In this document: piece by piece, positions 10,039 through 52,137 of the stretch
Layout: each line of letters starts with the position of its first letter
How positions within the stretch are numbered: the stretch's first letter is position 1
DNA from: Dehalococcoidia bacterium
GTDB lineage: Bacteria; Chloroflexota; Dehalococcoidia; Bin125
Reading direction: 5' to 3'
Assembly (NCBI GenBank): GCA_963662615.2
Contig: CAXXSR010000001.1
Coordinates: 1,632,001-1,696,000 of the forward strand
DNA length: 64,000 nucleotides
The notes under the pieces: model-generated
What the model was told of the DNA's origin: nothing
Databases searched by the model: none
Seen by the model: only the letters and a program-made list of their open reading frames with translations
Made by a program: the position numbers and the translations under genes

Positions 10039-11586
10039 TCAGGGGAGAGTGCGAGCGGGTGCGGCCGCGGTCACCATTGAACGAACATGGGCATGAACAT
10101 CCGTCGGTGCGGAAGATGGAATCACGCCACGGAGTTCGCTTCCGTCGCGTGAGGCATCGACACGAATCTGGAGCGCGTCGAGCAGCAGATTCATATCGTC
10201 GCCCTCGGCGCTGTTGACCCACTCGCGGATTGCATCACACATCGCTCGGAGCCCCTTTGAGTCAGGCAGTTCAGGAACTGTGGCCATGACCGGCTTTGCT
10301 TGTTCGGCGAGGCGTTCTTGCTCCGCCCGGATCAACACCGTCTCACGTCGCAGATGCGGCTCGTCGATCTCACCCAGCTGGAATAGCCGCAGCAGCCGGC
10401 CGCGCTACGCCTCGAGTTCGCGTAGGCGCTGCTTGGTCCGAGCTGCCTCGTTCCTCGGGGAACCAGCGGCCGCGCTTTGCCTCCGGATCTCCGCCATGAC
10501 GATCTCCGGGCGCGAGAGCACTGCGGTGACCGCGGCGCGCACGGCATCTTCAAGGCGGTCTGCTCGCACGTACCTGGAGTCACATCGATCATGCTTCGGT
10601 CCGGCGAACGCAGCCCGGCACCGATAGTAGCGGTACTTCTGGTGCTGGGTCTGGCCAACCATTGCCCGGCCACACTCGCGGCAGCGCACACGCCCTGACA
10701 GCAGGTAGTCCCGCTTGCGGCGACCACTCCGTAGGCGCTCGGGGTCTCGGAGGCGCAACTGCACTGCGTCGAACATCTCTCTGGGCACTACCTCGGGTGT
10801 CGCTCCGGGCACCTCGATCCAATCAGCCTCGTCTCGAGGCTCTACTCGCCGAGGCCGTAAGCCCTTGCGCGGCGTCACCTTCGTCTTCCGGTACAGCGTG
10901 CGTCCGGTGTACGCCTCGTGCTGCAACAAGTGGAAGACCGTCGCTGGCGACCACTGTCCGCCAGCGAATGTCGGGGTCCCCTCGTCGTTCAGCGCGTTGC
11001 ATAGTCCGATGATCGAGCAGCCGGTCGCGAACTCGGTGAAGAGGCGCAGTACAACCTTCGCCTGTTCTGCCACGACCGTTCGTTTGCCGGTACTCGGGTC
11101 GTAGACATAGCCGTACATCCCGCGCCCGGTTCCCTGTGGCAGACGACCGGAGCGGGCCCGCTCAACTTTGCCACGCATCGTGCGCTCAGCGATCTTCTCG
11201 CGCTCGAACTCCGCTGCGAACGCCTTGACCGATCGCAGCAGCTGCCCCGTGGCTGTGTCCTCGAAGTCCTCGGTGACGAAGTGGAGCGCGACACCATGCT
11301 GCTCCATCTCCTCAACAAGGATCGCGACGTGGGTCTGCTTCCGACTCATGCGGTCGAGGGCGTGGGCCAAGACGACATCGACCTGTCCTGAGGCTGCGAG
11401 TTCCCGCATTCGCTCCATTCCGGGTCGCTCGAGAGTGAACCCACTGGCTGTGTCACGCAGAGCCTCCGCGACGATCCAGCCATCCTTCTGCGCATACTCC
11501 GCGCACGCAGCCTCCTGCGTGTCGAGCGAGGTCCCCTCACGCTCCTGGGCGTCGGTCGAGACCCGCGAGTAGATCACGCAGCGCAT
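10039..11586 (-). pseudogene. large serine recombinase with one in-frame TAG at 10405-10407
   Basis: YSRVST, DRMSR, Zn ribbon CRECG...YYRC; frame continues past the stop (ELEA*RGRLLRLF, paralog ESAQGRLVRLY) into ORF 10039-10338. Confidence 0.85.
10071..10096 (-). repeat. att site at island left boundary: displaced 3' end of dnaN
   Basis: TCACCATTGAACGAACATGGGCATGA encodes MPMFVQW* on the minus strand; 22/26 identical to 52112-52137. Confidence 0.9.
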
Positions 11587-11768
11587 CAGGTTGCCTCCGT
11601 CTCCGACTTTGGGGACCGGCCAGGCGGCCCAATCTCGTCTCCGCTGGTGCGGTACTTCTCGTCGATGGCGTCACGCACGAGCCTCGCCATCGCCGTGTGT
11701 TGCTCGAACGCGAGGCGGCGGAGGGTCTCGTACTCATCATCGCTGATGGTCAGCACTATTCGTCTCAT
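11586..11768 (-). CDS. ribbon-helix-helix (CopG-like) DNA-binding protein
   Basis: RRIVLTISDDEYETLRRLA...MARLVRDAIDE; TGATG overlap with the recombinase start. Confidence 0.7.
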   Translation of the reverse strand: MRRIVLTISDDEYETLRRLAFEQHTAMARLVRDAIDEKYRTSGDEIGPPGRSPKSETEAT

Positions 11769-11795
11769 GACAATATAATTATATCACTATATTCC
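11769..11795 (-). promoter_or_regulatory. extended -10 promoter (TGaTATAAT) overlapping a 12-bp palindrome ATATAATTATAT (11773-11784)
   Basis: AT-rich patch in GC-rich DNA, 9 nt before the ATG of the RHH gene. Confidence 0.6.
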
Positions 11796-11823
11796 GCTTG
11801 AAAGGACCGCCTCCAATCCGGCA

Positions 11824-12870
11824 TCACTGCACGGCCAGGCGCGAATGGGCTGTGTCCAGATCAACCGGTAGGGGCCGGGGCGCACGGCGTTGCGCCTGGA
11901 GTCGCTGGTGCGGCCGCAGGAGGCGGTTGAGCGTCCGCATGTCGGCGATGCCGAGCGCGACCGCGACCTCGTGGTCCCGGAGGCCCGCGTCGCTCAGGTA
12001 AGCGGCAGAGGCGCTCCGCAGGGTGCTTCGCGCCGCGTGGGGAAAGCCTGAGGCGGAACATGCGCCGCGCACGATGCGCCGTGCCTGACGATCGGTCAGC
12101 GGCTCGCCGCGCGCGTTCGCGAACACGAACTCGTCAGACGGCTCCACCTTTAGACGATGGCGCGTCATGAGGGCCGCCGCAGGGCCGAAGATCGCGAGGC
12201 GTGTTCGCTGACCACCTCGCGTCGCCGCGACGCTCCACGCCTCGCCTGCGGGCTCCCATCGCAGGGCGCTCCAGCGCAGGCAGCGGATCTCGCCAGCATC
12301 GAGTCCACTGTAGCAATGGACCGTGACGAGCAGCCGATCCCGAAGCGCGCGCGGGCCTCGCTTGCCGGCTCTTGCGGCCTCCACGATGCGCAGCAGGTCG
12401 GACGGCTCGATGGTGGGGCATTGCGCGCGCCTCCGAGACCGATCTCCCGCCAAGATCACGCCGCTCTGGTACCAGTCCGTCCCATCGCGTCTCGGGAGCA
12501 TCTGGTCGAGGTCGTCGATTCGCCGTCGCCCGTCATCGTCACCGAACATCAGCAGGAGCGCCGCATGGATCGCGCCGAGTCGGATCAGCGCGGTCGTCGC
12601 TGAGGGTCGCTTGGCCGGGGAGGTCAGCACCTCAGCCAACGCCGCGGGACGAGCGAGGATCTCGGAGAGCGTGCTGCCCCGTCCCCGCCGTCCGGCCTCG
12701 CGGACAACGGACCGCAACTGCGAGACCTCGCCCCTGACCGCCCCACCCGACCGGTCTCGGCCGTGCTGCTCGCGGTAGCGGACGAGGAACGCCTCGGACT
12801 CGGCATCGAGCCGTCTGGCCATCGGTCGCTCCAGCGGATCGAGGTCAAAGAGCGTGCGCTGGAACATCAT
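11824..12870 (-). CDS. tyrosine-recombinase-fold protein B, predicted catalytically dead
   Basis: SGLDAGEI (R to D), STLR (H lost), LGIADMRTLNRLL (H and Y lost). Confidence 0.75.
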   Translation of the reverse strand: MMFQRTLFDLDPLERPMARRLDAESEAFLVRYREQHGRDRSGGAVRGEVSQLRSVVREAGRRGRGSTLSEILARPAALAEVLTSPAKRPSATTALIRLGAIHAALLLMFGDDDGRRRIDDLDQMLPRRDGTDWYQSGVILAGDRSRRRAQCPTIEPSDLLRIVEAARAGKRGPRALRDRLLVTVHCYSGLDAGEIRCLRWSALRWEPAGEAWSVAATRGGQRTRLAIFGPAAALMTRHRLKVEPSDEFVFANARGEPLTDRQARRIVRGACSASGFPHAARSTLRSASAAYLSDAGLRDHEVAVALGIADMRTLNRLLRPHQRLQAQRRAPRPLPVDLDTAHSRLAVQ

Positions 12871-14068
12871 CCGCTCGCACGGGCTCCGCTCGCGGCTGGG
12901 CGCCGTCCACGCCGAGGCCGCTGAGTTTCGTCCAGACCGCCGCGCGGCTGGGCGTCACATAGGAGGCGTCGAACCGCTCCGTCCCCCGCCAGCCGCCACC
13001 GAGCACGGCCTCCCAGCGGGGCAGCACCGCGGCCGCCCCTGTCGCCCACGCCCGGCGGAAAGCATGGGGCGTGTAGTCGGGTGTCCCTGCGAGGCGGCAC
13101 GCGTGCCGGAGCGCCGCCCGCATCGTCTTGTCCGGCAACTGCGCGCCACGCTCCGTCCGCCAGACTGGCCCAGGTTGCCCGAGGGCGATGCGATCGGGGC
13201 GTCCCGCGGTCCGCATCGTCTCGTTGAACCCGAACACGTACAGCCGCAGCGCCTGGCACGACTCGCGATCCAGTTCCACCTCGTGGCGCTCGCGCCCGTT
13301 CTTCTGGTGCAGGAGGACGCGGACGCGGTCGTCCGGCAGGACGTGGCAGTCCGTCCCATCGAGCGTCCGGAGCGCGTGTCCGCGCGAGGCCGTCCTGGCG
13401 AGCAGTGTCGCGAAGGCGCGATCGCGAAGGCCGAGCCAGCCCTCGGCGCGCCCCATCGCCGTGATGATGGCGCGTAGTTCCTCTGGGCGCGGCGTCGGGC
13501 CCCCGCGTCTTCGCGGCGTCCCTGCGGTGATGCGGTATCCTCCACCTCGCCGTTCGGCAACGCGCCGCAAGGCGTCACGGATGATCTCGTGCGGGTCGCG
13601 CCCGAGGGCCGTCTGGAGTTCGGGGCGCAATATGGTCGCAACCGAGCGGATGGCGGTCCGGCGATGCGCGATCGTGGATTTGGAACAGACACGACCGCTC
13701 GCGCACCGGTCCGAGACCAGCATCCGGCCGAGCAGTTCAGGATTGGCGAACAGGTCCGGAATGCCGACGCGGCGCCCGGTTTCGGCAGAGGCGCAGGCAA
13801 GCATCTCGTTCCTCAGCCAGCGGTACGTCTGCATGCTCCGGGTGCGCAGTCGTCCTTCGGCCCGCTCTTCGTACAGCCGGTCGAGGTCGTCACGCTGCGG
13901 TGGGGCGATGGGCTGGCAGCGGTAGGTGCGGCGGCGAACCTTGGGCGGCCTGAGTCCCTCAAAGTCGGGGAGCGCGAACCGGCGCTGATCCGACCCTGAA
14001 ACCCGTACCGACAGGGGCGGGAGTACATCGCAAAACCGGCCGGACTTTCGGGCGGGGCGGGGAAACAT
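12845..14068 (-). CDS. Cre-like tyrosine recombinase A (start uncertain; ORF open to 14446)
   Basis: RTASRGHAL, HQKNG, TPHAFRR, GGWRGTERFDASY (R-K-H-R-W-Y). Confidence 0.8.
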   Translation of the reverse strand: MFPRPARKSGRFCDVLPPLSVRVSGSDQRRFALPDFEGLRPPKVRRRTYRCQPIAPPQRDDLDRLYEERAEGRLRTRSMQTYRWLRNEMLACASAETGRRVGIPDLFANPELLGRMLVSDRCASGRVCSKSTIAHRRTAIRSVATILRPELQTALGRDPHEIIRDALRRVAERRGGGYRITAGTPRRRGGPTPRPEELRAIITAMGRAEGWLGLRDRAFATLLARTASRGHALRTLDGTDCHVLPDDRVRVLLHQKNGRERHEVELDRESCQALRLYVFGFNETMRTAGRPDRIALGQPGPVWRTERGAQLPDKTMRAALRHACRLAGTPDYTPHAFRRAWATGAAAVLPRWEAVLGGGWRGTERFDASYVTPSRAAVWTKLSGLGVDGAQPRAEPVRADDVPAHAL

Positions 14069-14465
14069 GGTGACACCGGGTTCCGAGGTCGATGGGGTGG
14101 GACTCTCGATCCCCCCTCCCCCATCAGCGGAACCAGTGTCAGAGGAAAATGTCTGATCGCTGCTTAGTAGTAGTCGTATTCGTCGTCGGCGTCGCAGTTC
14201 GTGACCCGGAGTGGTGTGCATCGATCGGAGCCCGCGCGGCAACGGCACTACTGGCCCTCCTCGCCGCACGAGTCGCCGAGCCGTTCGCGAGCCACCGCGA
14301 GCAGGCGACGCCACAACGCCTCCCACGCGAGCGAGCGGTACCGTGCTTTCCCCACGTAGCACTGCACTTCGTTCACGGGGCGTTCGAGTCGGTCGGCAGC
14401 CATGCCCCGATCGAAGCAGAGCTAGGCGAGGCGTTCGTGGGATCACCGTGGAGCTTGGACGTAAT

Positions 14466-16172
14466 TTAGGCGTGTTTTGGGGGGAAGTTCAGCCGGTAGT
14501 GCCGACCCTTCTCGGGAACGACGAGGTTCTTCCAAGCAGCTGAGTCCCTGAACACCTCACTCACGCGCGTGGTGTTCGTGGCAATCCCCTTGAGGGCGTC
14601 GTGGGTGCGCAACGCACGGATGCCCGCCTCGTGTGCGCGGTGCAGATTCTTGACGACCTGCGCTTGTGGCGGCGTCAGCGTGAACTCAGCGTCGCCGAGA
14701 CGCACCGACTCGTAGCTCTCGGTGTGGGTGAACGGGGGAACCGCTGGAGCGTCATCCACCTTGGCAGCCGCCATCACGAGGAGCGAGTGCTGCGGCAGCT
14801 CCCCTCGTGCTAGTGACCCAGCGGCGCGCTCGACCATGCTGGACAGGACCGCCAGTACCGTCTCTGAGTGGCGGACCAGCATATCGAGGTACGCTTCCAG
14901 GTCCTGGGTCTCGCGCCCCTTTCGCAAAGCCGTGATCACGTCCGGATACGCCTCAACGGCTCCCTGATCCGAAAGCGTGCCCAGATCGCGTGCGAAGCGC
15001 ACGTACGAGACCGCGGTCGTTCGCGGATCACCCTCAGGAAGCTCGTCCAGGAACACATCCACGCCGTAACGCTCCGGCGGGTCGTACTCTTCCAATTCGG
15101 TCCCCACAGTAGCGAACCGGCGGTCGATACACTGCGAGCAGTAGCCGCAGTGGGGCCGCGTCCTAGAGCGCCGCTGCGAGTTCACGCATGAGAGCGTCGC
15201 GCCGATCAAGTCCGGCTGCCCAGCGGCAGCGATCTGCTCCACGACCTGGCGCCGCGTGCGGTCCCATAGTGGATTCCTGACCTCCGGCGCCTGACCGAGC
15301 ACCGCGGTGGCCAGCGTATTCAACAGAGCGATGAACCGGGGGTGCGTCGAGCGGGAGGCCCGGCTACCGACGAGCTGTCGGTTTATCGGCAGGTTCAAGC
15401 TAACGACACCGTTGTCCGACAAGAAAACCACGGCGGCGTCCATCCGGTGCGCCGCGGCCAGGGCGAGGGACCCATAGAGGAAGGCCCGTGACCGTCGCGT
15501 GCGTTCGCGCGCCTCGTCTCCGGTGCGATGCACTGCCGCCTCGAGCATCGAGAAGCTATCGCTGCCGAACCGTTGCCGAAGTTCCTCGGCGATCCTGCGG
15601 CGCTCGCCTTCGACCAACCCCCAGCTCCGATGCGAGACGAGCAGAGGCCGCCGCTTCTCAGTGAGTTCAGCGAGAACCGTCGCCAGCGAGTCCATCCCGC
15701 CGGAGAAGAGCACCACGACATCCGTCGAGAGGCCCCTCCTCGGCCCCGCTTCGGGCAGCAGCAATTGCCGATCCTCATCAGCGCCAGCCGGCTCAAAGGC
15801 GAACCGCCACTGATCCTGCGTGAGGAAGCCGACGCACTCCTGGAGCGCTCGGGTGACCGGAGGCGAGGACCAGACGTCCGGCGCATTGACGGGAATGGCC
15901 AGCCGCAGGTCTCGCTCCCAGTGCTCGAGTTTCCAATCCGCGCGGCCGCCGCGAGAGACCGTTTGGTCCGCGGCGTAGACGTAGCTCGCGATGCGGACGA
16001 GGTCGTAGGCGCGCCCATCCAGACGCCCGGCGAACGCGTGCTCGAGGTCCTCGATCCGGAGATTCATGGTCCTGCGTGGGCCACGCGTGTGCAGGGCCAC
16101 AGTCTCGACATCGCCGCCCCGCCACTCGCGCGGGATGGTGGCACCGTCGCAGGGGAAGACGACGGCGCTCAC
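14466..16172 (-). CDS. QueC-like (QatC-like) protein with C-terminal winged-helix-like tail
   Basis: LFSGGMDS PP-loop, RSRAFLY, SRSTHP, SC...HCGYCSQCIDRR; GTGA overlap with upstream gene. Confidence 0.8.
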   Translation of the reverse strand: MSAVVFPCDGATIPREWRGGDVETVALHTRGPRRTMNLRIEDLEHAFAGRLDGRAYDLVRIASYVYAADQTVSRGGRADWKLEHWERDLRLAIPVNAPDVWSSPPVTRALQECVGFLTQDQWRFAFEPAGADEDRQLLLPEAGPRRGLSTDVVVLFSGGMDSLATVLAELTEKRRPLLVSHRSWGLVEGERRRIAEELRQRFGSDSFSMLEAAVHRTGDEARERTRRSRAFLYGSLALAAAHRMDAAVVFLSDNGVVSLNLPINRQLVGSRASRSTHPRFIALLNTLATAVLGQAPEVRNPLWDRTRRQVVEQIAAAGQPDLIGATLSCVNSQRRSRTRPHCGYCSQCIDRRFATVGTELEEYDPPERYGVDVFLDELPEGDPRTTAVSYVRFARDLGTLSDQGAVEAYPDVITALRKGRETQDLEAYLDMLVRHSETVLAVLSSMVERAAGSLARGELPQHSLLVMAAAKVDDAPAVPPFTHTESYESVRLGDAEFTLTPPQAQVVKNLHRAHEAGIRALRTHDALKGIATNTTRVSEVFRDSAAWKNLVVPEKGRHYRLNFPPKHA

Positions 16173-16936
16173 GAGCTTTGCGCCTCCCGCTTCAGCTCGC
16201 TGCGTATCTTCCGGAGCGCGACGGCCGTGAAGCGCTCGGCGTCGGCTTGCGGAATGTCCTGGCCGGTCTCCCAGCCCCGCTTCGAGAGCCATTCGCCAGC
16301 GAAGTCGCGAACGATTCCCGCAGACTGCCGCGCGTGCAGATCGACGGCCGCAAGGACCTCGGTCCCGGCCGCCACGCTGGAGAGAACATTGGGAATCTCC
16401 CGATCGAGCGCAGCCGTCAGCACCCGCGCGAGAAAGTCCCCAAAGAACTTCTGAGACACCTCGCCGAACTGGCGCTCCGTGGAGTGCGCGCGGAACGCAC
16501 GCTCCAGATCCTCAACCGTGCCGCCGAACAGGCTCGTCGCCTGCGTCGCCACCGTCTCCAGCAGGGCGCGGCGGAAGGCCTGGGTGGCGTACTCGCCGGC
16601 GACGGACGTCGAGCCCGCCTGCGCGATGTCGGCCCGCAGGCGGTCCGAGAGTTGCGTGATGAGTGCGACCGAAGAGGTGCCGTCGGCCGCCTCGACGCCG
16701 AGCTGCTCCAGCTCCGGGCCGAGCCGCCCGGCCCGCGAAGCGGACATGAGGCGGACCAGGAGCCAGTACGAGCGCGTAAGAGACGGATCGGTGGCCAGAC
16801 GGCGGAGGTAGTCTTCCGCCGCCACGACGGAGGCAGCGGCGACCGCGGCGGTATCGCCGTGGTCCGCAGTCAGGCGATCGACGACCTGCACCCAGCGATC
16901 CCGCTTTGGCAACCGGCCCAGGCGGTTGTGTCCCAT
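16169..16936 (-). CDS. helical partner of the QueC-like protein (QatB-like position)
   Basis: Begins MGHNRLGRLPK; translationally coupled to the QueC-like gene. Confidence 0.65.
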   Translation of the reverse strand: MGHNRLGRLPKRDRWVQVVDRLTADHGDTAAVAAASVVAAEDYLRRLATDPSLTRSYWLLVRLMSASRAGRLGPELEQLGVEAADGTSSVALITQLSDRLRADIAQAGSTSVAGEYATQAFRRALLETVATQATSLFGGTVEDLERAFRAHSTERQFGEVSQKFFGDFLARVLTAALDREIPNVLSSVAAGTEVLAAVDLHARQSAGIVRDFAGEWLSKRGWETGQDIPQADAERFTAVALRKIRSELKREAQSS

Positions 16937-17309
16937 CAGGCGCGCTTAGGCATCGTGAGCGTTCCGCTCCGCGTCACCGTCGCGGGTGGCGACCTGCACC
17001 GCGACGGTGACGCTCGTGGACGCCGGGTGACCTCGCGGACTCTCCGCCACATCGTAGGCGACCGCCTGCGACGCGAGGGCTTCCATCTGCTTGACCGGCG
17101 AGTACCTCCCACCAGTCACGGTGGATCGACTTCCCGGTGGGGCACCACGCAGCCGTGACCTCATCGATCTCATCGGCTATGTCAGACACCCCGCGGCAGG
17201 GCCCCACCACTCAAGAGGCAATGTATGGGTAGTGTCCTAGTTTGACGAACCACTCTGGGCGCGCGCCGCTCGCTTATGTTCGTGCCAAGATTTCCTAATC
17301 CTCGAGTGG

Positions 17310-17618
17310 CTAGCGGCAAGAGTCCGGCAACGGTTCGCCTACTCGTACCTCTGTAATGCACGCACGGGAGACCTCGGCTGGTGTTGAAGTACGGAACACG
17401 CATGTTTCCTCGACGGAGCCGAAGGCGCGATACCGAACGCATACCTGGGGCGGCGTAAGTTCAGCTTTGACCCCGACGACGATTTCATCTCCCAGTTCTG
17501 CCTGGGTTTCCAGAGCGGCGATCCGCTGTTCGAGATCGCTGGTGTCCGTTCTACAAGCGGCTGCGGAGATGAGGATAATGGCGATGACCGCGATCGTTCC
17601 GACTCCCCGCACGATCAA
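17310..17618 (-). CDS. small putative lipoprotein
   Basis: Hydrophobic N-terminus ending ISAAAC; four further Cys. Confidence 0.45.
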   Translation of the reverse strand: MIVRGVGTIAVIAIILISAAACRTDTSDLEQRIAALETQAELGDEIVVGVKAELTPPQVCVRYRAFGSVEETCVFRTSTPAEVSRACITEVRVGEPLPDSCR

Positions 17619-17962
17619 GAGCCTTTCTGGTAGTCGGCCACGATCGCGGCCTTGACGGCATTCACGGGCGAGTCGATCCCGCCCGAGTGCAGCACAGCGA
17701 CGTAGCGTCGCTTCCCTTCATCCGTCTCGTGGGACCAGGCGTAGGCGCGCTTGGCCTTGGGGTGGTCGATGAGGTCGAAGACCTGGACCACACCCTCCCA
17801 GACCGTCTCACCCTCGAACGTTTCCGTGACAGGTACGGCCTCCACCCAGCGGCTCTCGCAGCCGTGGAGGTCGCGGATGGCGTCTCGCAGAGCCTCTACA
17901 TTTGTCTCCGCCAAAGGGCTACTCGCCAGACTTATCGTGGCTCTGGGCCGCCGGGGGCTCAT
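17615..17962 (-). CDS. hypothetical protein (true start probably ~17915)
   Basis: Globular-looking composition (VWEGVVQVFDL...AYAWS); overlaps next gene. Confidence 0.55.
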   Translation of the reverse strand: MSPRRPRATISLASSPLAETNVEALRDAIRDLHGCESRWVEAVPVTETFEGETVWEGVVQVFDLIDHPKAKRAYAWSHETDEGKRRYVAVLHSGGIDSPVNAVKAAIVADYQKGS

Positions 17963-17963
17963 C

Positions 17964-18783: not shown

Positions 18784-18812
18784 TGACCTGCCCCCGATTG
18801 TTGTACCAGGGC

Positions 18813-19655: not shown

Positions 19656-19679
19656 GTGCGCAACCGCCTGCCGCCGGGC

Positions 19680-19958: not shown

Positions 19959-20024
19959 GCCGACTCCCTCCTCCCAGCCCGGATCCTCGCATAGGATCTG
20001 GACCGGTTTTGGGGGGGCAGGTCA

Positions 20025-23680: not shown

Positions 23681-23691
23681 ACGACGCCAGG

Positions 23692-29592: not shown

Positions 29593-29662
29593 CCTATATC
29601 CGCGAGCCGCCCCGACCCATGCTACTCATGCACCAGCGCGTCGTCGCGGCCACTTGGCGAGT

Positions 29663-29866: not shown

Positions 29867-29878
29867 CCAGCGCCACGC

Positions 29879-43900: not shown

Positions 43901-44371
43901 CCGTTCTCTGCCCGCGCACTGGATCGCGGCTTCGCTGGTGCATGCGTTGCACTGGCGCGGTACGCCGAGCCGGCGCTGGCACCGCCGCGCGGTGCCGAGC
44001 AGATCGCGGCGGTCCGAGTTTCCCTAGAGATGCAGCTCCTCGACGCATTCCTTGAGCGGGTCCGGCAGCAGCCGATCGAGGACGCAGACGAGCTGGAGGA
44101 ACGCTTACGCAGTGTGCGAAACCGGACCGTGGATCTGCTCGACTCCTGGCGGGCGGTCTTCGACGAGTACCTCGCTGACGGAGTGGCGCTGCAGTACCAG
44201 AAGTACGAGCTGGACGGTCCTCGGCCACTCCTGCGCGACATCCTCGACCGAGATTTCGAGTCGGAACACCACCGAAAATTCCGTGCTAACCGGTCGCTTC
44301 GCGACGTGGAGCCGGAGGTCAACTTGTTTCTCCATGACCTCAACGGCAGGCAGGTGGACGCCGGGCCATGA
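40973..44371 (+). CDS. drmA: DISARM helicase
   Basis: PTGGGKTEAY, QDELH, ATNMISVGLD, QATSRVGR. Confidence 0.88.
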   Translation: MAKTGTDDAPATTSFEVRASLVQALHLDLVGPGSDHELAEERLPGWVRPSNWYLTGFLIPSGTPPEQAADTDEGEDLDETPESAGLAEESSEDRKAAKRGFFPSSMGLSFLVPAGAQTLQVLVSWGDYTAEEIEGEDRKSSSVWQRHPREQTVDASLGAGGGAPWVVPLPDSGGLELNIVERAVSVVDLEGQIPAGTRSISLFLVNHRPPLEARLDEAFVFQPQLDVRCEVPFVPRPDLRGASPEDWDEQVADLHYADVPAYATGHSVSAEWETADGACRLLRTAWIPSAEVEKTSTVELPGVELSMNVLGVLEGGPAVEKALAPLVERYRTWIEERRDETAQLAGTRRDTADQLLSSASFAADRIERGIAVLAEDPDVLDAFRVANRAVARALQKRLDVESPQWRAFQLAFVLLNLPGMADPSDPNRDTVDLLFFPTGGGKTEAYFGLAAFAMVLRRLRHRGSPAGVGVSVIMRYTLRLLTLDQLSRAAGLVCALELERDQDPISYGEWPFEIGLWVGKAATPNVLGHKGDGRSDSARSKVRQFKSDPRNRPSPIPLENCPWCGESFKPESFELRPDDDRPRELRIVCMNFECDFTRDRALPIVAVDEPIYRRLPAFLIATVDKFASLPWVGQAGALLGGADHHDSTGFYGAADPGSGTRLDTPLPPPDLIIQDELHLISGPLGTMAGLYETAIEALCVRQLEGRAVRPKIVASTATVRRAPDQIQALFGRASTQVFPPPGPGRRHSFFAKTLSPTEVPARLYLGVAAQGRNPKEVLRKTWLALMGAAQRAYRDAGGHQNEANPADPYMTVLGYFNSLRELGGCRRILEEQVQNTIKAYGGRKRVGEDRGLFRDRKTFSEVVELTSRVPTNKVAEARRRLEARFHEKQRVDCAIATNMISVGLDIQRLGLMVVQGQPKTTSEYIQATSRVGRDEERPGLVVTLLNIHKPRDRSHYERFRHYHETFYRSVEVSSVTPFSARALDRGFAGACVALARYAEPALAPPRGAEQIAAVRVSLEMQLLDAFLERVRQQPIEDADELEERLRSVRNRTVDLLDSWRAVFDEYLADGVALQYQKYELDGPRPLLRDILDRDFESEHHRKFRANRSLRDVEPEVNLFLHDLNGRQVDAGP

Positions 44372-46161
44372 GCAAGCGCGCACACGGCCAGATTCGACGG
44401 AGCCAAGTCATCACCACGTGGGGCCCCGGTGCGCTCCTGGATCTCCCCCGCCACTCGGCGATCGTCGGGGGCTTGGACACCTGGCCCCGAATCAACGACC
44501 TCGAGGAGATCGTGGAGCCATTCCTGTCGCGAAAACTTCAAGAGATGACGGGCGTTGCTGCCCCGCGCTTATACGCTCCACCGGCGGACTCGAACGACCC
44601 CCGGGAGCCGAAGCAGGGCATCACGGTCTACCGCTTTCCGGAGTGGTTCATCGTCCAAGAGGCCGCGGGCGAAGACGGACGCCAGCGCTCCCGACGCCTC
44701 GTGTCCCGGCGCGCCCTCGATGAGCGGGGAAAGTTCGACGGGCACCTGGTCGTCGCGACCCGGTTCGTGCGGGGGTGCCCGCGAGGACACGTGGACGATC
44801 TCGATTGGCCTACGTTCGTCCATGGCCCCGGGGACGGCTGTCATCGCCAGCTCTGGCTGGACGAGCGGGGGACCAGCGGAGACCTGGGCGAGAACGTCGT
44901 GCGCTGTGAATGCAAACGGACGCGCGGGATGCACGAAGCGATGCTTCTCGAGGACAATCCGCTGGGTACGTGTCGCGGCACGCGCCCCTGGCTCGGACTG
45001 CATTCCAAGGAGGACTGTACGCTGCCCAGCCGCCTTCTCACCCGGACAGCCGCCAACGCCTACTTCCCGCAAGTGGTCAGTGTGCTCTCGCTCCCAGACC
45101 AGGGATCGGCCGTCCAGGGGGTAGTGCGAGCACTCTGGGACGATCTGCAGATCGTAGACACCGTCGACCAGCTCGCGTTTCTCAAGAAAAAGCCTCAAAT
45201 CGCAGATCTGCTCTCGCCGTTCAGCAACGACGAGGTCTTCGAGGCGATCGGCGTGGTCAAAGGTGGGCACGACGACGAGCGACCCGTTAAACACGTGGAG
45301 ATCGAAGCGATACTCGCCGCTCCCGAGGGCTTCGGGGACGACGTCCCGGTCGACCCGAACTTCCATGCACGGCGCCTGCCAGACGCAGCCTGGCGCCAGT
45401 TCTCTCGGAGCGACGGAATCGAGAGCGTCACCCAGCTCCATCGATTGCGAGAGGTCCTCGCCCTCAGCGGCTTCACCCGGTTCGAGGCGGAAGTACCCGA
45501 CATTCACGGCGAGTACGACAGCGATGTGCAGCGTGCGGAGCTTGCCCTGGAGCCCCAGTGGTTCCCCGCCGTCGAGAATCGCGGCGAGGGACTCTTCGTC
45601 CAGCTTCGTGCCACGGCCCTGCAGAGCTGGCTTGAGCAGCCGGGTGTCCAGGACCGACTCGATCACCTCACGACCGGCCATGACAGATGGATCAAGGACC
45701 GCAAGAGTAAGAGACAGTTCCCCGGCGGGCCGTACATTCTCCTGCACACGCTGTCGCATCTTCTGATGGAGTCGCTCTCGATGCGCTGCGGCTATCCAGC
45801 GAGCTCGATCCGCGAGCGGATCTATGCGGATGCAGCGGGGCAACGCTTCGGCGTCTTGCTCTACACGGGTAGCCCAGACGCAGAAGGCACACTCGGAGGG
45901 CTCGTCCAAGAAGCGCGTCATTTTGAGGCCCATCTTGCCTACGCGCTGCGGATGGGGGCGCTGTGCTCCAACGATCCGATTTGCGCAGAACACGCCCCTG
46001 GAGAAAGTTTGGAAGAACGCTGGCTCCACGGTGCCGCCTGCCACGGCTGTGCGCTGGTCGCGGAGACGTCATGCGAGATGCGCAACGACCATCTCGATCG
46101 CGCACTCCTCGTCCCCGTCCTGGGAGTCTCGGATGCGGCGTTCTTCGAGACCGTGGAATGA
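44368..46161 (+). CDS. drmB: DISARM DUF1998 protein
   Basis: RSQVITTWGPG; LHTLSH; GTLGGL; CSNDPIC...ACHGC...ETSCE. Confidence 0.88.
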   Translation: MSKRAHGQIRRSQVITTWGPGALLDLPRHSAIVGGLDTWPRINDLEEIVEPFLSRKLQEMTGVAAPRLYAPPADSNDPREPKQGITVYRFPEWFIVQEAAGEDGRQRSRRLVSRRALDERGKFDGHLVVATRFVRGCPRGHVDDLDWPTFVHGPGDGCHRQLWLDERGTSGDLGENVVRCECKRTRGMHEAMLLEDNPLGTCRGTRPWLGLHSKEDCTLPSRLLTRTAANAYFPQVVSVLSLPDQGSAVQGVVRALWDDLQIVDTVDQLAFLKKKPQIADLLSPFSNDEVFEAIGVVKGGHDDERPVKHVEIEAILAAPEGFGDDVPVDPNFHARRLPDAAWRQFSRSDGIESVTQLHRLREVLALSGFTRFEAEVPDIHGEYDSDVQRAELALEPQWFPAVENRGEGLFVQLRATALQSWLEQPGVQDRLDHLTTGHDRWIKDRKSKRQFPGGPYILLHTLSHLLMESLSMRCGYPASSIRERIYADAAGQRFGVLLYTGSPDAEGTLGGLVQEARHFEAHLAYALRMGALCSNDPICAEHAPGESLEERWLHGAACHGCALVAETSCEMRNDHLDRALLVPVLGVSDAAFFETVE

Positions 46162-46940
46162 CCGCGGCCCTCTTCGGTCTCCCGGCGCATCGGCGGAGGC
46201 GGCTTGTGGAAGCCCTTCAGTCGGGTCAGCTCTCTACGCCTTATTCCCCCACTTCGCTGCGATCAGTCCTCGGGCTGCGCGAGGGGGGCGAGGCCGTGCT
46301 CGATGCCCTGGGGGAGTTGGAAGGGATGAGCATCACTGGACGGGCCGCGGCGGCCTGGATTCGCGCCGTTGATGAGGCAGTCGATCGGCTGCCGCGGCCG
46401 GATCTCGTCTGGTCAGGCCCGGAGGTACTCGGGCTGCACGCCCGCGACACGCGGCGCGTGTACGAGGAGCTTCTGGGTGCGGCGGAGGACTCGATCTGGG
46501 CGTGCAGTTACGCCTACTTCGATGGTCGGCGCGCCTTCGAGGCGCTGGCGCGCCGGATGGACGAGAAGCCCGAGTTACGTGTGACGCTACTGCTCAACAT
46601 TCAGCGCCGACGCGGGGACACGACGACGGCGGAGCAGCTGGTGCGGAAATTCGCGGATCGCTTCTGGGGCACGGATTGGCCCGGCTCGTCCCGGCCGAGG
46701 GTCTTCTACGACCCGCGCTCGCTTGAGCCCGATGGTCCCGCTGGGGTCTTGCACGCGAAGGCCGTGGTAGCGGACGACAGGGCGGTCTTCGTGACATCCG
46801 CCAACCTCACCGAAGCGGCGCTCGACAGAAACATTGAGATCGGTCTGCTGGTTCGCGATCCGGCGATCGCCGCTACCGTCTCGACGCACTTCCGCACACT
46901 GGTCGAACAACGCTTGCTGCTCCAGTTGCCTGGGGACTAA
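46158..46940 (+). CDS. drmC: DISARM phospholipase D-like nuclease
   Basis: LHAKAVVAD (HKD), SANLT, NIEIG. Confidence 0.88.
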   Translation: MTAALFGLPAHRRRRLVEALQSGQLSTPYSPTSLRSVLGLREGGEAVLDALGELEGMSITGRAAAAWIRAVDEAVDRLPRPDLVWSGPEVLGLHARDTRRVYEELLGAAEDSIWACSYAYFDGRRAFEALARRMDEKPELRVTLLLNIQRRRGDTTTAEQLVRKFADRFWGTDWPGSSRPRVFYDPRSLEPDGPAGVLHAKAVVADDRAVFVTSANLTEAALDRNIEIGLLVRDPAIAATVSTHFRTLVEQRLLLQLPGD

Positions 46941-47011: not shown

Positions 47012-47962
47012 TGACCTGCCCCCCCAGAACCGGTCCAGATCCTGTGCGAGGATTCGGGCCGGTGCGAAGGGAGTCGGCATGGCACGCAAGCGGTACGCGG
47101 CCGAGGAGATCATCAGCAAACTGCGGGAGGCGGAGGTGGTGCTCGCGCAGGGGGAATCGGTCGCGCCGGTCGCGCGCCGCCTCGGCGTGGCCGAGCCAAC
47201 GTATTACCGCTGGCGGCGGGAGTACGGGGGGCTGCGGGTCGACCAGGCCAAGCGGCTGAAAGAACTGGAGCGCGAGAACAGTCGGCTGAAGCGGTTGGTG
47301 GCCGATCAGGCGCTGGACAACGCGATGTTGCGGGGCGTCGCAGCGGGAACCTGCTGAGCCCGGCCAAGCGGCGCCGGGCGACATCCTCCCGCACGGACCC
47401 GTACGCGGTGTCGGAGCGGCGGGCCTGCCGGGTCACCGGCCAGGCGCGGGCACCGCAGCGCTACGTGCCCCGGCCGTCCCCGGATGAGCCGGCGCTGATC
47501 GCGCGCATCGTCGCGCTGGCCACCCGCTTCGGCCGCTACGGCTCCCGCCGCATCACGGCCCGGCTGCGCCAGGCGGGCTGGCGGGTGAACCCCAAGCGGG
47601 TCGAGCGGCTCTGGCGTCAGGAAGGCTTGCGGGTCCCCGGGAAGCACCCCAAACGGGGCCGCCTCTGGCTCGCGGCCGGCTCGCTGGTGCGGCGGCGGGC
47701 CGAGCGGCCGAACCACGTCTGGTCCTACGACTTCGTCTTCGACCGCACCGCCGCTGGGCGCCCGGTGCGGATCCTCGCCATCGTGGATGAGTACACCCGC
47801 GAGTGCCTGCGTCTCGACGTCGCCCGCCGACTGCGCAGCGACGACGTCCTGGCGCGGTTGGCCCAGCTGTTCGTCGAGCGCGGGCCGCCGACGTTTCTGC
47901 GGTCCGACAACGGCCCGGAGTTCACCGCCACCGCGGTGCGGGACTGGCTGCACCGGGTCGGG
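47012..47962 (+). mobile_element. IS3-family element, 3'-truncated
   Basis: IR at 47012; orfA 47079-47357; orfB stops matching the 17964-18783 copy at 47962. Confidence 0.88.
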
Positions 47963-49255
47963 CTCCCGCCCGAGACTGGCGCGCAGTCGCGCCGGAGGCG
48001 GGAACGGACTAAGGGAAGATCGGCACTCCACGACCCTATACCAGATGGGAAGATCGGCACTCAGCTTGAGCTTTCTCTGGATGGGTTGGACGTGTCGCCG
48101 GTCTCGAAGGAGAAGCGCAAGCGCGCGGCTAAGAGACCAGCCCGACACGACGAGCTGTTCGATCTCTACCAGCGTCGGATCGCCGGCCGCGTCGCACCCG
48201 CGACAGTGACGAAGTACGCCTGGACGCTCGAACAGTGTCTTCGTCTGGCCGAGGAGCGAACCTCCCGGCCGGTGAGCATAGCGATGCTGTTGACTGACGG
48301 AACGGCGCTGGGATACGTCTGTTCCACGACTCGACGCCCTGGTGGCGGACTCCCCATCTCGGCATGGACCGCCGCGCATAGAAGGACGGTCTTGCGGTCC
48401 GTGGCCGGGACTCTCGCACCGGAACTCAGGTCTTTGGGCCTGAACGACGCGATCCAACACGTCGATCTCGCGATCCGGCGAGTGGCCGAGAGGGTGGGCG
48501 GTGGATCTCGCTTGCCGGTCGGAACGACGCGGAACAGAGGCCGGCCCGTGCCGTCGACGGCGGAAGTGAGCTCGCTACTGAACGTCGTAGGAAGCGACGA
48601 AGGCTGGGCTGGTCAGCGAAATGCGCTGTTCTACGGAATCCTCGCCGCGACGGGCACGCGCGTCGGCGCACTTCTTGTACTGGATGGCCAAGACTTGTGT
48701 CTGACTCCGGACGGTGCCGTCCGGCTTTCTCTCCACGACAAAGCCTCCGGTGGGCGGTTCGAGCTGGAACTTCCGGATCGCTTCCACGCACCGCTAGATG
48801 CCTACTTCGAGGCTACCAATCTGTCGCTCACCGGTCTGGGAAAAGGGCGAGTCGGGTTCGGGAGATTAGGCCCTGTTTGGCGCGGTCCAACGGGCGATCG
48901 ATGGCCAGCCGCCCAGATGCGCCGCCGCTTGCGAGCGGCCTGCCGCACGGCTGGGATAGAGGACTACACGCCGCATTCGTTCAGAGCCTACTTCGCCACG
49001 CAAGCGACCAACGTCGCGTCGCGCCGAGTCGCGGCCCTTGCCGGAGGCTGGCGGGGGACCGAGCGAATGGATGACCACTACGTCGGAGTCAAGCGCGATT
49101 CCATCGAGCGGAAGCTCGCCCAGATCGGCGTATCCGACAGAAGCCAACGCGGCTCCCGTCGTCGCCCGGCGGTTGAACAGCCTCATATGTCGCCCGCCGC
49201 AACTACACCGACGGCGGGTGCAGATCTCATTGCGAAGATCCGGTCGCGCCAATGA
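47963..49255 (+). CDS. Cre-like tyrosine recombinase A, right module (in frame with IS orfB; native start unclear)
   Basis: ATGTRVGAL, HDKASG, TPHSFRAY, AGGWRGTERMDDHY; homologous to 12845-14068. Confidence 0.78.
   Translation, partial: LPPETGAQSRRRRERTKGRSALHDPIPDGKIGTQLELSLDGLDVSPVSKEKRKRAAKRPARHDELFDLYQRRIAGRVAPATVTKYAWTLEQCLRLAEERTSRPVSIAMLLTDGTALGYVCSTTRRPGGGLPISAWTAAHRRTVLRSVAGTLAPELRSLGLNDAIQHVDLAIRRVAERVGGGSRLPVGTTRNRGRPVPSTAEVSSLLNVVGSDEGWAGQRNALFYGILAATGTRVGALLVLDGQDLCLTPDGAVRLSLHDKASGGRFELELPDRFHAPLDAYFEATNLSLTGLGKGRVGFGRLGPVWRGPTGDRWPAAQMRRRLRAACRTAGIEDYTPHSFRAYFATQATNVASRRVAALAGGWRGTERMDDHYVGVKRDSIERKLAQIGVSDRSQRGSRRRPAVEQPHMSPAATTPTAGADLIAKIRSRQ
48013..48062. repeat. 16-bp direct repeat GGGAAGATCGGCACTC x2 (48013-48028, 48047-48062)
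   Basis: Read directly. Confidence 0.85.
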
Positions 49256-50277
49256 CAGCGCTCCAACCCGATCTGTTGAAGTCCAAGCGTGCGTCGCTCG
49301 ACGAAGACTCCGAACGGTTGCTGACGACCTACACGCAGGCACGGCTCGACGAGGGAGCAGCCGCATCGACCGTGTCGTCTGAGCGCTCCCAGCTCAGGAG
49401 CCTGCTACGGGACTCGATCGAATCCGGCAAGGCCAGGACCCTCGCTGAGCTGGTGATGGACCCGTCGAGCGCCGCATCCGCGCTGACCTGCCCCACAGGT
49501 TCACCGGGCAGGGCGTCGATGCAGACGAGACTTCGCGCCTTCCAGCGGCTCTCGGGGCTCGGAGTTTCCGACGCGGAACGCAGGGCACGCCTCGAAGTCT
49601 TGGATGGGTCCCTCCCTTCCCGGCGCAGCCGAGGGTGGCACGACGCCGGTATCGCCGTCGCTGGACTACGGGGAACAGGACGGTGTAGAACTTCGACGAT
49701 CGATCCATCAGCGCTGGAGGCGATCGTTCTCGGGAGCGGTGTCCGAGCGAACGACGATTCCGCCCTTCTGGGCGCGCTCTGCTTCAGCGGCCTGCGCGTC
49801 GCGGAGGTTCGCATGCTGCGCTGGGGAGATCTGATCTGGAACGGCGCGGCAGAATCCTGGGAAGCTTCGGTCCAGCGTACCGGGAGACGTGGCCTGCGGT
49901 TTCTCATCGTTGGACCCGGTGCCCAAACCATGACGAATTGGAGACTTGAATCGCGCGCCGACGACGACCAAGCTGTCTTCGGCGCGCGGGACTCCGGGAA
50001 ACCCCTATCGGCGCGTGGCTTCCGACGGCGCGTGGACTTCGCTCTAACTCAGGCTGGGCATCCCTCGACCCGGCATTCCCAGATTCAGTCGGCGTTCGCG
50101 GGCTGGCTCTCCGCGTCCGGCTTCACGGACCACGAGATCAAAGTGGTGATGGGGCGCCGGGAGGTCAGATCGGTTGACCGGCTCCTGTTCGCTCACCGGG
50201 CGTTGGCGGCGCAGCGGCAGCTTGCCGAGCAAATGGAGGGTGCGCCCCTTGGCTCGGGCTCGATCGGGAGCCATTGA
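49252..50277 (+). CDS. tyrosine-recombinase-fold protein B, predicted catalytically dead
   Basis: SGLRVAEV retained; HxxR replaced by SQIQ; MGRREVRSVDRLL lacks H and Y; ATGA overlap with A. Confidence 0.75.
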   Translation: MTALQPDLLKSKRASLDEDSERLLTTYTQARLDEGAAASTVSSERSQLRSLLRDSIESGKARTLAELVMDPSSAASALTCPTGSPGRASMQTRLRAFQRLSGLGVSDAERRARLEVLDGSLPSRRSRGWHDAGIAVAGLRGTGRCRTSTIDPSALEAIVLGSGVRANDDSALLGALCFSGLRVAEVRMLRWGDLIWNGAAESWEASVQRTGRRGLRFLIVGPGAQTMTNWRLESRADDDQAVFGARDSGKPLSARGFRRRVDFALTQAGHPSTRHSQIQSAFAGWLSASGFTDHEIKVVMGRREVRSVDRLLFAHRALAAQRQLAEQMEGAPLGSGSIGSH

Positions 50278-50341
50278 AGTGCTCTGGGTACTTGAGGCTA
50301 GAGATAAAGACGGTGATAATAATGAGGAAGGGGGTGCTGCG

Positions 50342-50578
50342 ATGGATGTGACGCTCAATGGGAAGCGCTACTCGATGACGAAAGCGGATGTGGAGCGGGT
50401 CGTCGACGAGGCTCCGGACTCGCCGCGACGATACGTCGTGAAAGTCAAACGAAAGCGCTACCCGATCAAACAGGCCGCAAGTGCGGGCCTCGGTGTGCCG
50501 CCCGTCGCGTTCACTTCCCAGCAGGCGTACCAATGGCTCTCGCGACTCGACTTCGACGTGATCGATCTGAAGGGCTGA
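50342..50578 (+). CDS. small basic putative DNA-binding protein (resembles SCO5918 family)
   Basis: YPIKQ...FTSQQA...LSRLDF; TTGAGG-17-GATAAT promoter-like sequence and purine-rich RBS upstream. Confidence 0.6.
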   Translation: MDVTLNGKRYSMTKADVERVVDEAPDSPRRYVVKVKRKRYPIKQAASAGLGVPPVAFTSQQAYQWLSRLDFDVIDLKG

Positions 50579-50583
50579 CGACC

Positions 50584-52137
50584 ATGCGAGCACTCGTCTA
50601 CTGCCGCGTGTCGACCGATGCCCAAGAGCGAGATGGCACTTCCCTCGATACTCAGGAGCGGGCGGCCGTCAAGGTTGCGCGCGAGTCCGGCTATTCGGTG
50701 ACCGAAACGGTCCGCGACACCGCGAGCGGATTCACGCTCGAACGGCCGGGAATCGAACACGTCCGGCGTCTGCTCAGGGCCGGCGCCGTCGACATCGTGC
50801 TGGCCTACGCCGTCGACCGATTGTCCCGCAACCAGAACCACATCGGTGTCCTCTTCGACGAGGTCGCTCAAGCTGGGGCTCAACTGGAGTTCGTGACGGA
50901 GGACTTCGAGGACACGGCGATCGGCCGCTTCATCTTGGCGGCGCGCGCGTTCACGGCGGAGGTCGAGCGCGAGAAGATCGCCGAGAGAACGATGCGCGGC
51001 AAGGCGGAGCGCGCGCGGCGAGGGAAGCTCCCTCAGGGTACGGGCAAGGGGATGTACGGATACGCGTACGACCCGGATACCGGAACTCGACAGATTGTCG
51101 AGGCGCAAGCAGCGGTCGTTCGACGGATCTTCGAGGCGTTCGTCGCGGGTCGAGCGTGCAACGGGATCTCGAACGATCTGAACGGCGACGGTGTTCCTGC
51201 GTTCAGCGGCGGGCGCTGGTACGCGCTGACGATCCGTCGACTGCTCAAGAATGAAGCGTTCGCGGGACGAACGATCTACCGGCGGACCCGCGCAGATCGG
51301 GTGCGGGATGTGGCGCGCGGTCGCTGGACGCGGCGCATCGTGGAGCGGGACCAGTCAGAGTGGATTGAGGTCGCGGGAGCGACGCCGGTGATCATCGACC
51401 GAGGCCTGTTCGACGCGGCACAGAAGATTCTCGACGATCCATCTCGCCGCCCACAGACGGCTCCGTCAGACGTGTACCTGCTCCGGGGCCGGATCTCTTG
51501 CCGGGAGTGCGGTGCGAAGATGGTCGGCCATGCTTCGAATCGAGGGCGCTATCGCTACTACCGCTGCCCGAACGGCTCAAGCGGTCCGGGAGAGACATCG
51601 TGCTGCTCAAGGTACATCCGCATCGAGCGCCTTGAGGGCGCGGTGAAGACGGCCTTGACCGATCTGCTTGCTTCACCGGACCGGCTTCTTGGTGAGGCGA
51701 AGCGTCTCGCCAGACGTCAGCCGCAAGACGAGGACCTTGAGAAAGTGTTCCAAGCCTTAGGCGAGGTGGAGTCCGCTCAGGGAAGACTGGTCCGACTGTA
51801 TACGACCGAGGCGCTTCCCGAGCACCTGCTGCGCGAAGAATCTCGGGTCCTGTCTGAGCGGCGTGAGGTGCTGGAGAACACGCGCCGAGAGCTGCAAGCT
51901 CAAACGGTGCCCACGCCCCGCGACTTCTCGCGGATCGCAGGCGACGTACCAGCGGCACTCTCGGCCATCCGCAGTTGGGTTAAGGACGCGAGCGGGGACG
52001 ACTTCGATCTCATGCTGCGGGCTGTCGATGCACAGGTCAGAGCCTCACACGAAGGGGTCGAGATCGCGGGCGCCGTGCCGATCTTCCCAGATGGGGATCA
52101 GGCGGATTTCGCTACCATTGAACAAACATCGGCATGA
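50584..52137 (+). CDS. large serine recombinase (integrase), intact
   Basis: YCRVST, DRLSR, CRECG...YYRC; stop codon lies inside the att/dnaN overlap. Confidence 0.9.
   Translation: MRALVYCRVSTDAQERDGTSLDTQERAAVKVARESGYSVTETVRDTASGFTLERPGIEHVRRLLRAGAVDIVLAYAVDRLSRNQNHIGVLFDEVAQAGAQLEFVTEDFEDTAIGRFILAARAFTAEVEREKIAERTMRGKAERARRGKLPQGTGKGMYGYAYDPDTGTRQIVEAQAAVVRRIFEAFVAGRACNGISNDLNGDGVPAFSGGRWYALTIRRLLKNEAFAGRTIYRRTRADRVRDVARGRWTRRIVERDQSEWIEVAGATPVIIDRGLFDAAQKILDDPSRRPQTAPSDVYLLRGRISCRECGAKMVGHASNRGRYRYYRCPNGSSGPGETSCCSRYIRIERLEGAVKTALTDLLASPDRLLGEAKRLARRQPQDEDLEKVFQALGEVESAQGRLVRLYTTEALPEHLLREESRVLSERREVLENTRRELQAQTVPTPRDFSRIAGDVPAALSAIRSWVKDASGDDFDLMLRAVDAQVRASHEGVEIAGAVPIFPDGDQADFATIEQTSA
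52112..52137 (-). repeat. att site at island right boundary: recoded 3' end of dnaN
   Basis: CTACCATTGAACAAACATCGGCATGA. Confidence 0.9.

Follow-up and report, generated by a model that had tools for sequence, protein, structure and literature searches.

We analysed a window of 64,000 nucleotides from a Dehalococcoidia bacterium (GenBank assembly GCA_963662615.2, contig CAXXSR010000001.1, positions 1,632,001 to 1,696,000 of the forward strand), which has a guanine-cytosine content of 62-73% and lies within a 2.0-Mb contig of a 2.66-Mb genome. A 42-kb island in this window, bounded by two mirror-image sets of recombinase genes, probably comprises two or more independent defence islands in tandem, each integrated by a large serine recombinase (LSR) and inserted at the end of dnaN. 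We view the island as an array because a third, internal copy of the attachment site (att) lies at 32986-33009, between an element E1 (10.07-33.0 kb) and an element E2 (33.0-52.1 kb). Each LSR gene is preceded by a cassette of two tyrosine-recombinase-type genes, here called A and B, and a small gene, and this A-B cassette is probably an exchangeable and self-mobile unit.

The evidence for the array lies in the repetition of the dnaN tail. A pattern search for the core, which is directly repeated at 10074-10096 and 52115-52137, gave 2 matches against 0 expected from shuffled sequences. This core corresponds to the final 7 codons and the stop of dnaN, and it is entered by the 3′ ends of both LSR genes, the final 8 codons of the right-hand gene being antisense to the final 8 codons of dnaN. 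The internal copy is degenerate and came to light through 48 bp that match locus L011. When all six frames of the 2.66-Mb genome were scanned for PMFVQW*, with at most 1 substitution allowed, 3 matches only were returned, at window positions 10091, 33006 and 52132; each lies on the strand of dnaN (minus). The attachment sites, their target gene and the two recombinase modules are arranged as follows, where type 1 denotes an LSR gene convergent on dnaN and type 2 an LSR gene co-directional into a dnaN tail:

10039..11586, minus strand: LSR_L, 'type 2' large serine recombinase at the dnaN-distal end of its element (Pfam Resolvase E 7e-36, Recombinase 6e-20, Zn_ribbon_recom 6e-18)
10071..10096, minus strand: attL core, a displaced dnaN tail (..MPMFVQW*) through which the LSR_L 3′ end reads co-directionally; left boundary of the array
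11586..11768, minus strand: S_L, 60-amino-acid small open reading frame (ORF) with a weak ribbon-helix-helix (RHH) match below Pfam cut-offs
11824..12870, minus strand: B_L, tyrosine-recombinase-fold protein (Pfam Phage_integrase E 1e-13) without the conserved Arg, His-x-x-Arg and Tyr
12845..14068, minus strand: A_L, tyrosine recombinase (ORF 12845..14446, probable start 14068; Pfam Phage_integrase E 6e-9; R..K..HxxR..W..Y kept)
32986..33009, minus strand: attM, internal degenerate att, dnaN tail IPMFVQW*; E1/E2 junction
47012..47962, plus strand: insertion sequence (IS) fragment of the IS3 family (HTH_21 and rve), abutting A_R
48007..49255, plus strand: A_R, tyrosine recombinase; homology to other copies begins at 48007, and the start codon is uncertain (TTG at 47963 in a first-pass annotation)
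49252..50277, plus strand: B_R, degenerate tyrosine-recombinase-fold protein (Pfam Phage_integrase 25.0 bits, under the 27.1-bit cut-off)
50342..50578, plus strand: S_R, 78-amino-acid small ORF with no Pfam match
50533 (more likely 50584)..52137, plus strand: LSR_R, intact 'type 1' large serine recombinase with three Pfam domains (Resolvase E 2e-30, Recombinase 2e-21, Zn_ribbon_recom 6e-13)
52112..52137, minus strand: attR core, functional dnaN tail, overlapped antisense by the LSR_R 3′ end
52112..53242, minus strand: dnaN, the target gene

The left module (10039-14068, minus strand) and the right module (47963-52137, plus strand) both have the order A, B, small ORF and LSR, reading outward, and B overlaps A in each. 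The coordinates, the Pfam matches and the repeated dnaN-tail core bear out the first-pass annotation, made from the sequence alone, which had described a mirror-image gene order with both modules facing outward and ending at att sites. Left and right copies share 41% protein identity for A, 36% for B and 53% for the LSR, and the common motifs quoted in that annotation are visible in the A and LSR alignments. Large serine recombinases carry an N-terminal catalytic serine motif, Y-x-R-V-S-T, which is found here as IYSRVSTDAQ in LSR_L and VYCRVSTDAQ in LSR_R. Because of a single in-frame TAG at 10405-10407, LSR_L is probably a pseudogene. On the right, the IS3-family fragment is joined in frame to A_R (ORF 47408..49255). 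The small genes had been labelled DNA-binding proteins. The left-hand protein has the weak RHH match, the right-hand one has no Pfam match, and the two are not homologous: tblastn of each across the genome returns itself only. The sole lead for S_R is an SCO5918-like match in Atlas (0.91, with low recognition), which is a lead only. The S_L stop overlaps the LSR_L start, and S_L homologues occupy the same slot of loci L021 and L024.

The two tyrosine-recombinase-type proteins differ in their catalytic residues. The catalytic R, K, HxxR, W and Y are kept by A in 9/9 sequences (R229, K256, H335, R338, W360 and Y370 in A_L numbering, invariant in 8 sequences), and A is predicted to be a catalytically competent tyrosine recombinase. 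In B, the first Arg is present in 2/9 sequences and the second in 2/9, and the nucleophile Tyr in none of the 8 sequences that reach its position, the ninth (L010) being truncated before it. To judge by these residues, B is a catalytically dead partner with a tyrosine-recombinase fold, and the earlier label 'Tyr-fold protein' proves apt because B has lost its catalytic residues across the 9 homologues aligned. Both proteins are named only through weak XerC/XerD matches in NCBIfam. The predicted A-B complex scored 0.24 with two alignments against a mark of 0.32, which is evidence neither way. The A family is rare: it occurs in 6 of 401 genomes of the class and in none of 25 genomes of the same family, and in a phylum sample only the window's own genome carries it (1/401). 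A scan of genome contigs with two peptide patterns gave 3 loci only, owing to the strictness of the patterns, and a metagenome scan 5 short contigs. In a collection of 5.8 billion sequences, A matched 35 protein clusters at E<=1e-10, named, if at all, only 'integrase'; tblastn at E<=1e-5 against plasmids (72,556 records) and phages (50,697 records) found no match to A. The LSR clade, defined in the class-wide sample with LSR_R as query at E 1e-40 or better, is far commoner, being present in 67 of the 401 genomes.

The mirror image is best understood from the geometry of related LSR genes, which we compared in 30 genes at the 29 best loci, all from other genomes. The 3′ end overlaps the dnaN-tail core in 28 of them. 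Type 1 geometry is found in 24; their loci include 17 in which a full dnaN is convergent with the LSR gene, and L063, in which dnaN is in two pieces. In L020, L021, L022 and L024, a full dnaN is met at its 3′ end by a convergent A-B-(small)-LSR module, the layout seen at the window's right end. The final 8 codons of type 1 LSRs (..TIE[QR]TSA*) are antisense to the final 8 of dnaN (MPMFVQW*), the two proteins sharing the crossover region. Type 2 geometry is seen in 4/30 (L044, L048, L056 and L066), as well as on the metagenome contig L077, and 2/30 are unclassifiable. The LSR here reads the dnaN-tail DNA in the sense direction, and the tail motif ..[DH]A[HD]VR..VV. that is common to type 2 genes, L077 included, is the dnaN tail in another frame. 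The LSR_L tail, ..VHAHVRSMV.., fits this pattern.

Two genomes place type 2 genes relative to an intact target. In G283, dnaN (607265-608395, minus strand) has the same direction as the LSR gene (541335-542834, minus strand), with 64 kb between them. The order in G175 is dnaN (2805-3932, plus strand), a type 2 LSR gene 12.7 kb further on (16672-18147, plus strand), the core and then a type 1 LSR gene. Because of these layouts, the type 2 integrase appears to be dnaN-distal and its adjoining core a displaced dnaN tail. In the same locus (L044, that is G175:C251:16672-19739), two full LSR genes converge on a single dnaN-tail core, 90 bp apart, which we read as the junction of a type 2 element with the next, type 1 element. 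The left end of the window is, by the same comparison, assigned as the end of a type 2 element, for which inversion or misassembly is needless. The mirror image is the outcome of two architectures, not of a shared design, because the LSR lies at opposite ends of the two elements (type 2 in E1, type 1 in E2). A comparison of the junctions also suggests a putative attP with inverted half-sites on both sides of the Met-Pro codons of the tail.

Arrays are common at the dnaN site. In G332 there are 4 more copies of the tail, of which one is inverted, and in G247 a dnaN-tail copy at 27 kb is followed by another, distant LSR. As a separate observation, two dnaN-tail copies on G332:C1, at ~882.8 kb and ~889.0 kb, are inverted to each other and 6 kb apart, and ~150 bp of identical flank surrounds each on both sides (assembled coordinates 83821 and 89968). 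This pair belongs to a dnaN array that exceeds 70 kb, and it may represent an invertible or duplicated segment.

Within the cassette, B comes after A in 15 of the 15 loci that have sequence downstream of A (L011, in which A is cut by an IS at residue 288, was left out of this count). Thirteen A-B loci extend 0.5 kb or more past B and are informative about what comes next: 8 have the order A-B-small-LSR, 7 with a full LSR (the two window modules, L020, L021, L022, L024 and L077) and 1, L079, with the LSR start only, where the first four LSR codons give way to unrelated AT-rich DNA. All 7 full-LSR loci have the dnaN gene or a dnaN tail at the LSR end. The remaining 5, namely a third copy in the window's own genome (G000) and L009, L023, L010 and L076, have A-B without an LSR; at L042, B-LSR is present and A is off the contig. 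Viewed from the LSR side, the cassette is uncommon. Just 4 of the 25 clade LSR genes of other genomes with at least 1.2 kb of upstream sequence have B upstream, and the B-linked LSRs are scattered over the LSR tree in 4 positions, the sister of LSR_R having no B.

Between G332a and G296, the LSRs share 90% identity but the B proteins only 49%; between G247a and G296, the values are 78% for the B proteins and only 46% for the LSRs. At the DNA level, G296 and G332a, which belong to the same genus, share 83.6% identity from dnaN through the LSR gene, ending at the LSR start, and G296 and G247a share 76.5% from the N-terminal part of the LSR through the small gene, B and A. The histories of the cassette (A-B and small gene) and of the LSR are, on these alignments, incongruent, and the cassette appears to have been swapped between LSR lineages.

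The cassette also exists alone. A solitary A-B unit of 2573 bp is 98.1% identical between the window's genome (G000, C1:893685-896255) and G220 (L009:9700-12267), two genomes of different families, with identical limits and unrelated flanks; the A protein of the solitary unit in G000 is 78% identical to A_L. Same-genus genomes share the sequence to the left of the G220 copy as far as the edge of the unit, and the sequence beyond differs from genome to genome. The left limit of the unit of the right-hand type, at window position 48007, is identical in the window, L010, L011 and one metagenome contig. Logan contigs, which are assembled data from 4 runs of 4 studies and were compared with window positions 32600-52500, break at 48007, at 50172 and within the att core. 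In two of these runs (X1 and X2), A-B pieces have a depth of 10-16 compared with 3-5 for pieces of the DISARM genes of E2, about threefold, a hint that the A-B cassette occurs in further contexts in those metagenome communities.

The slot between B and the LSR gene is filled by three unrelated types of small gene: an RHH-like type (window left, L021 and L024), the S_R type (window right, with its first 30 codons in L010) and a Cys-rich type (L020, L022, L077 and L079), for which there is no Pfam match and Atlas gives unnamed clusters only, as leads. Another conserved small ORF (..W.ELWRRI..EV..) lies just 5′ of A in L021 (14463-14657) and L022 (14794-14973); no counterpart of it was recognised in the window.

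Several explanations of the paired modules can be envisioned. The first-pass annotation had offered two, a single element with two modules or two related dnaN-targeting elements fused after the loss of an internal att. The latter is essentially right, except that the internal att was not lost, since a degenerate copy lies at 32986-33009. A single composite element, whose modules would converge on one attP in the circle and move the whole 42 kb, is highly improbable: although both modules face outward and end at att copies, and the converging LSR pair of G175 has the look expected of such an attP, that pair lies 12.7 kb from dnaN within an array, as a junction of type 2 and type 1 elements predicts. 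The same internal att speaks against it, as do relatives that have one module per element and are bounded by dnaN-tail copies, elements resembling E1 or E2 that stand alone at dnaN in both architectures, and the premature TAG in LSR_L. It is extremely unlikely that the left module was flipped by DNA inversion of a canonical element, or that the mirror image stems from misassembly. With the LSR gene as reference, the left core is indeed the reverse complement of the canonical layout, and G332 has one inverted att copy; against this, the co-directional geometry and the LSR tail motif recur in 5 independent loci from genomes and metagenomes, the dnaN positions in G283 and G175 agree with type 2, and the contig that holds the window is 2.0 Mb long. 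We rejected inversion of the left module on the ground that other genomes have the same co-directional geometry of LSR and dnaN tail.

A different question is whether A, B, the small protein and the LSR form an obligate four-protein recombination machine, of which solitary A-B copies would be decayed remnants and in which the tyrosine pair would serve the LSR, for example as a directionality or excision factor or in array resolution. The proposal has some appeal, given that order, orientation and tight spacing are constant in 8 loci with highly diverged sequences, that the stop of the small gene overlaps or abuts the LSR start, and that the cassette is carried by both type 1 and type 2 LSRs. 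We nevertheless consider it unlikely: 21 of the 25 clade LSR genes have no B upstream, cassette and LSR histories disagree, and a solitary 2573-bp unit with identical limits and unrelated flanks is not expected from decay. The earlier suggestion of a conserved functional unit thus holds in that A-B-small-LSR recurs beside dnaN (L020, L021, L022, L024 and L077, and in part L042 and L079), with an LSR next in 8/13 A-B loci and dnaN or its tail at 7/7 full ones, but the unit is not obligatory, given the 4/25 LSRs with B upstream, the 5/13 loci with A-B alone and the incongruent histories.

Under the history that we favour, E1 would be the older element, of type 2, with its LSR dnaN-distal and co-directional into the displaced dnaN tail, and E2 the younger, of type 1, with its LSR dnaN-proximal and convergent with dnaN; E2 would have inserted into the dnaN tail supplied by E1, pushing that tail to 32986-33009. 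Each LSR is preceded by a cassette of a catalytically competent A, a dead partner B and a variable small gene, and this cassette would be dispensable for dnaN targeting, an exchangeable accessory docking directly 5′ of the LSR gene and able to exist and move alone. The anatomy, recurrence and swapping of the modules and the solitary copies are matters of observation; beyond them, the LSR would act as the integrase at the dnaN tail, E1 would have been inserted before E2, and A with B would mobilise the cassette by a site-specific circle-and-insert route similar to that of Tn554. A broader proposal, tentative and on balance somewhat doubtful, is that A and B, with or without the small gene, constitute an undescribed two-gene mobile element that moves itself among distant Dehalococcoidia and docks preferentially just upstream of serine-integrase genes, which would make it a hitch-hiker or parasite of genomic islands that possibly takes over their excision. 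Under this proposal the dnaN tail would in addition be a major undescribed island hot spot of the class, and recombination would rewrite the C-terminus of the LSRs that serve it.

A number of points weigh against this history. The type 2 LSRs and LSR_L do not form one well-supported clade (supports 0.33-0.68), and fragments of an LSR and of a tyrosine recombinase within E1 are not accounted for by two elements; because of these orphan fragments, a third, decayed element within E1 is likely. Neither an excision product nor a circle junction nor an empty site was seen in the assembled contigs. Specifically, the Logan contigs of the 4 runs have no joint from 33.0 to 52.1 kb and no circle junction (a contig joint from 39310 to 52127 was taken as spurious, with only 25 letters on one side), and the left-flank enolase-family gene, which would anchor an empty-site comparison for the island, has no close orthologue among 40 same-family genomes, only 1 of which has a match at E<=1e-60, with 42% identity. 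As for the cassette, its fixed site and orientation despite divergence to 30-50% identity would also be expected of an old functional partnership. The solitary unit has no terminal repeats, no inverted repeat of at least 12 bp being found between its ends; the 110 bp upstream of 29 LSR starts contain no shared docking or target motif; and the relatives of G220 offer no clean empty site and no readable target duplication.

Between the modules, the two elements carry the following genes:

14466..32606: E1 cargo region, with defence genes, IS copies and recombinase fragments
14466-16292: E1, QatC-like protein
17956-20026: E1, IS3-family copies (HTH_21, rve)
21569-23680: E1, UvrD/GajB-like helicase
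23715-26561: E1, type III Mod
27361-29592: E1, type III Res
29663-29878, minus strand: E1, tyrosine-recombinase C-terminal fragment
30486-30575, plus strand: E1, LSR C-terminal fragment, 84% amino-acid identity to LSR_R residues 447-471
30741-32606: E1, GmrSD-like protein
33726..46940, plus strand: E2 cargo, DISARM class 1 set
33726-37037, plus strand: E2, DrmD (PADLOC E 0)
37037-40972, plus strand: E2, DrmMI (PADLOC E 0)
40973-44371, plus strand: E2, DrmA (PADLOC E 7e-276)
44368-46161, plus strand: E2, DrmB (PADLOC E 1e-78; Pfam MZB)
45963-46940, plus strand: E2, PLD (DrmC-like; Pfam PLDc_2 1e-13)

E2 thus has DrmD, DrmMI, DrmA, DrmB and DrmC in one cluster, the composition that defines DISARM class 1. 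The LSR C-terminal fragment of E1 is 2.4 kb from attM, with the GmrSD-like gene between. Several further IS3-family copies are found elsewhere in the genome, and G000 and G220 have IS3-family copies in common, at ~96% identity. The gene upstream of dnaN encodes a class III aminotransferase (53384-54682) and not dnaA, which places this dnaN outside the classical dnaA-dnaN arrangement.

The island provides a worked example of defence islands stacking at one chromosomal site and defines a dnaN-tail attachment site for an LSR clade that is widespread in Dehalococcoidia (67/401 genomes). Such LSRs, whose attB is defined and conserved, are attractive tools for genome engineering. The two architectures illustrate that one integrase clade can occupy either end of its element, with the codons for its last residues spanning the crossover site. 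More original than this is the A-B cassette. If the 2.5-kb pair of an active and a dead recombinase beside serine integrases is indeed self-mobile, it would be a new small class joining the multi-recombinase elements Tn554, RIT and GInt, and a case of a site-specific system riding on a second one.

LSR-integrated elements are exemplified by those of phiC31- and Bxb1-type integrases, by SCCmec with its Ccr recombinases and by the fdxN element with XisF, and the Dehalococcoides ssrA islands described by McMurdie and co-workers in 2011 are said to be LSR-integrated islands as well. E1 and E2 resemble LSR islands and prophages in their three-domain LSR, the position of the integrase gene beside att, the defence cargo and the insertion at the 3′ end of a conserved gene whose tail is restored by the element. 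They fit the testable features of the LSR-integrase family, and attP x attB catalysis is predicted. In NCBIfam the window LSRs have a weak similarity to XisF and CcrA/B/C, far under the cut-offs. Unlike known LSR islands, they target the final 8 codons of dnaN, their LSR frame crosses the att core in either orientation, and they form tandem arrays at the dnaN tail. Our literature search found no paper pairing 'large serine recombinase' with 'dnaN' and none on dnaN-targeting islands.

The cassette finds its closest parallels among elements with several tyrosine recombinases. Tn554 carries tnpA, tnpB and tnpC. Going by its description and not its sequence, it shares with our cassette a pair of neighbouring tyrosine-recombinase-type genes with a small gene after them, and the solitary A-B unit is similarly compact (~2.4-2.6 kb), devoid of terminal inverted repeats and located at unrelated sites. 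Unlike in Tn554, B is without catalytic residues, the usual site is directly 5′ of an LSR gene, and A has no match in the plasmid or phage records searched. Consistent with the first-pass annotation, which knew of no described unit coupling such a pair to a serine integrase, the literature searched contained no description of the A-B-small-LSR unit; the lists of bipartite modules (BIM) and recombinases in trio (RIT) in PMC3414803, of which a part was available and which also mentions Tn554, might contain related pairs. As far as the available parts of PMC3414803 and PMC5385486 describe them, RIT and GInt have three recombinase genes, and BIM (PMC3414803) consists of a recombinase and an SMC-domain protein in beta-proteobacteria. 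The cassette resembles all three in using several tyrosine-recombinase genes as a mobile-element module. By these partial descriptions, A-B differs from RIT and GInt in having two recombinase-fold genes, the third gene encoding 60-80 amino acids and no recombinase, and from BIM in that B has a Phage_integrase fold and the hosts are Dehalococcoidia; one active and one dead recombinase fold, tied to a serine integrase, set it apart from all of them. Finally, the accessible portion of PMC4383910 sets out the Islander concept of tandem accretion of islands at tRNA and tmRNA genes. The dnaN arrays are like the accretion described there in arising through repeated use of a single site, and unlike those islands, which use tyrosine integrases at tDNA, in that a serine integrase would act here at the tail of a protein gene.

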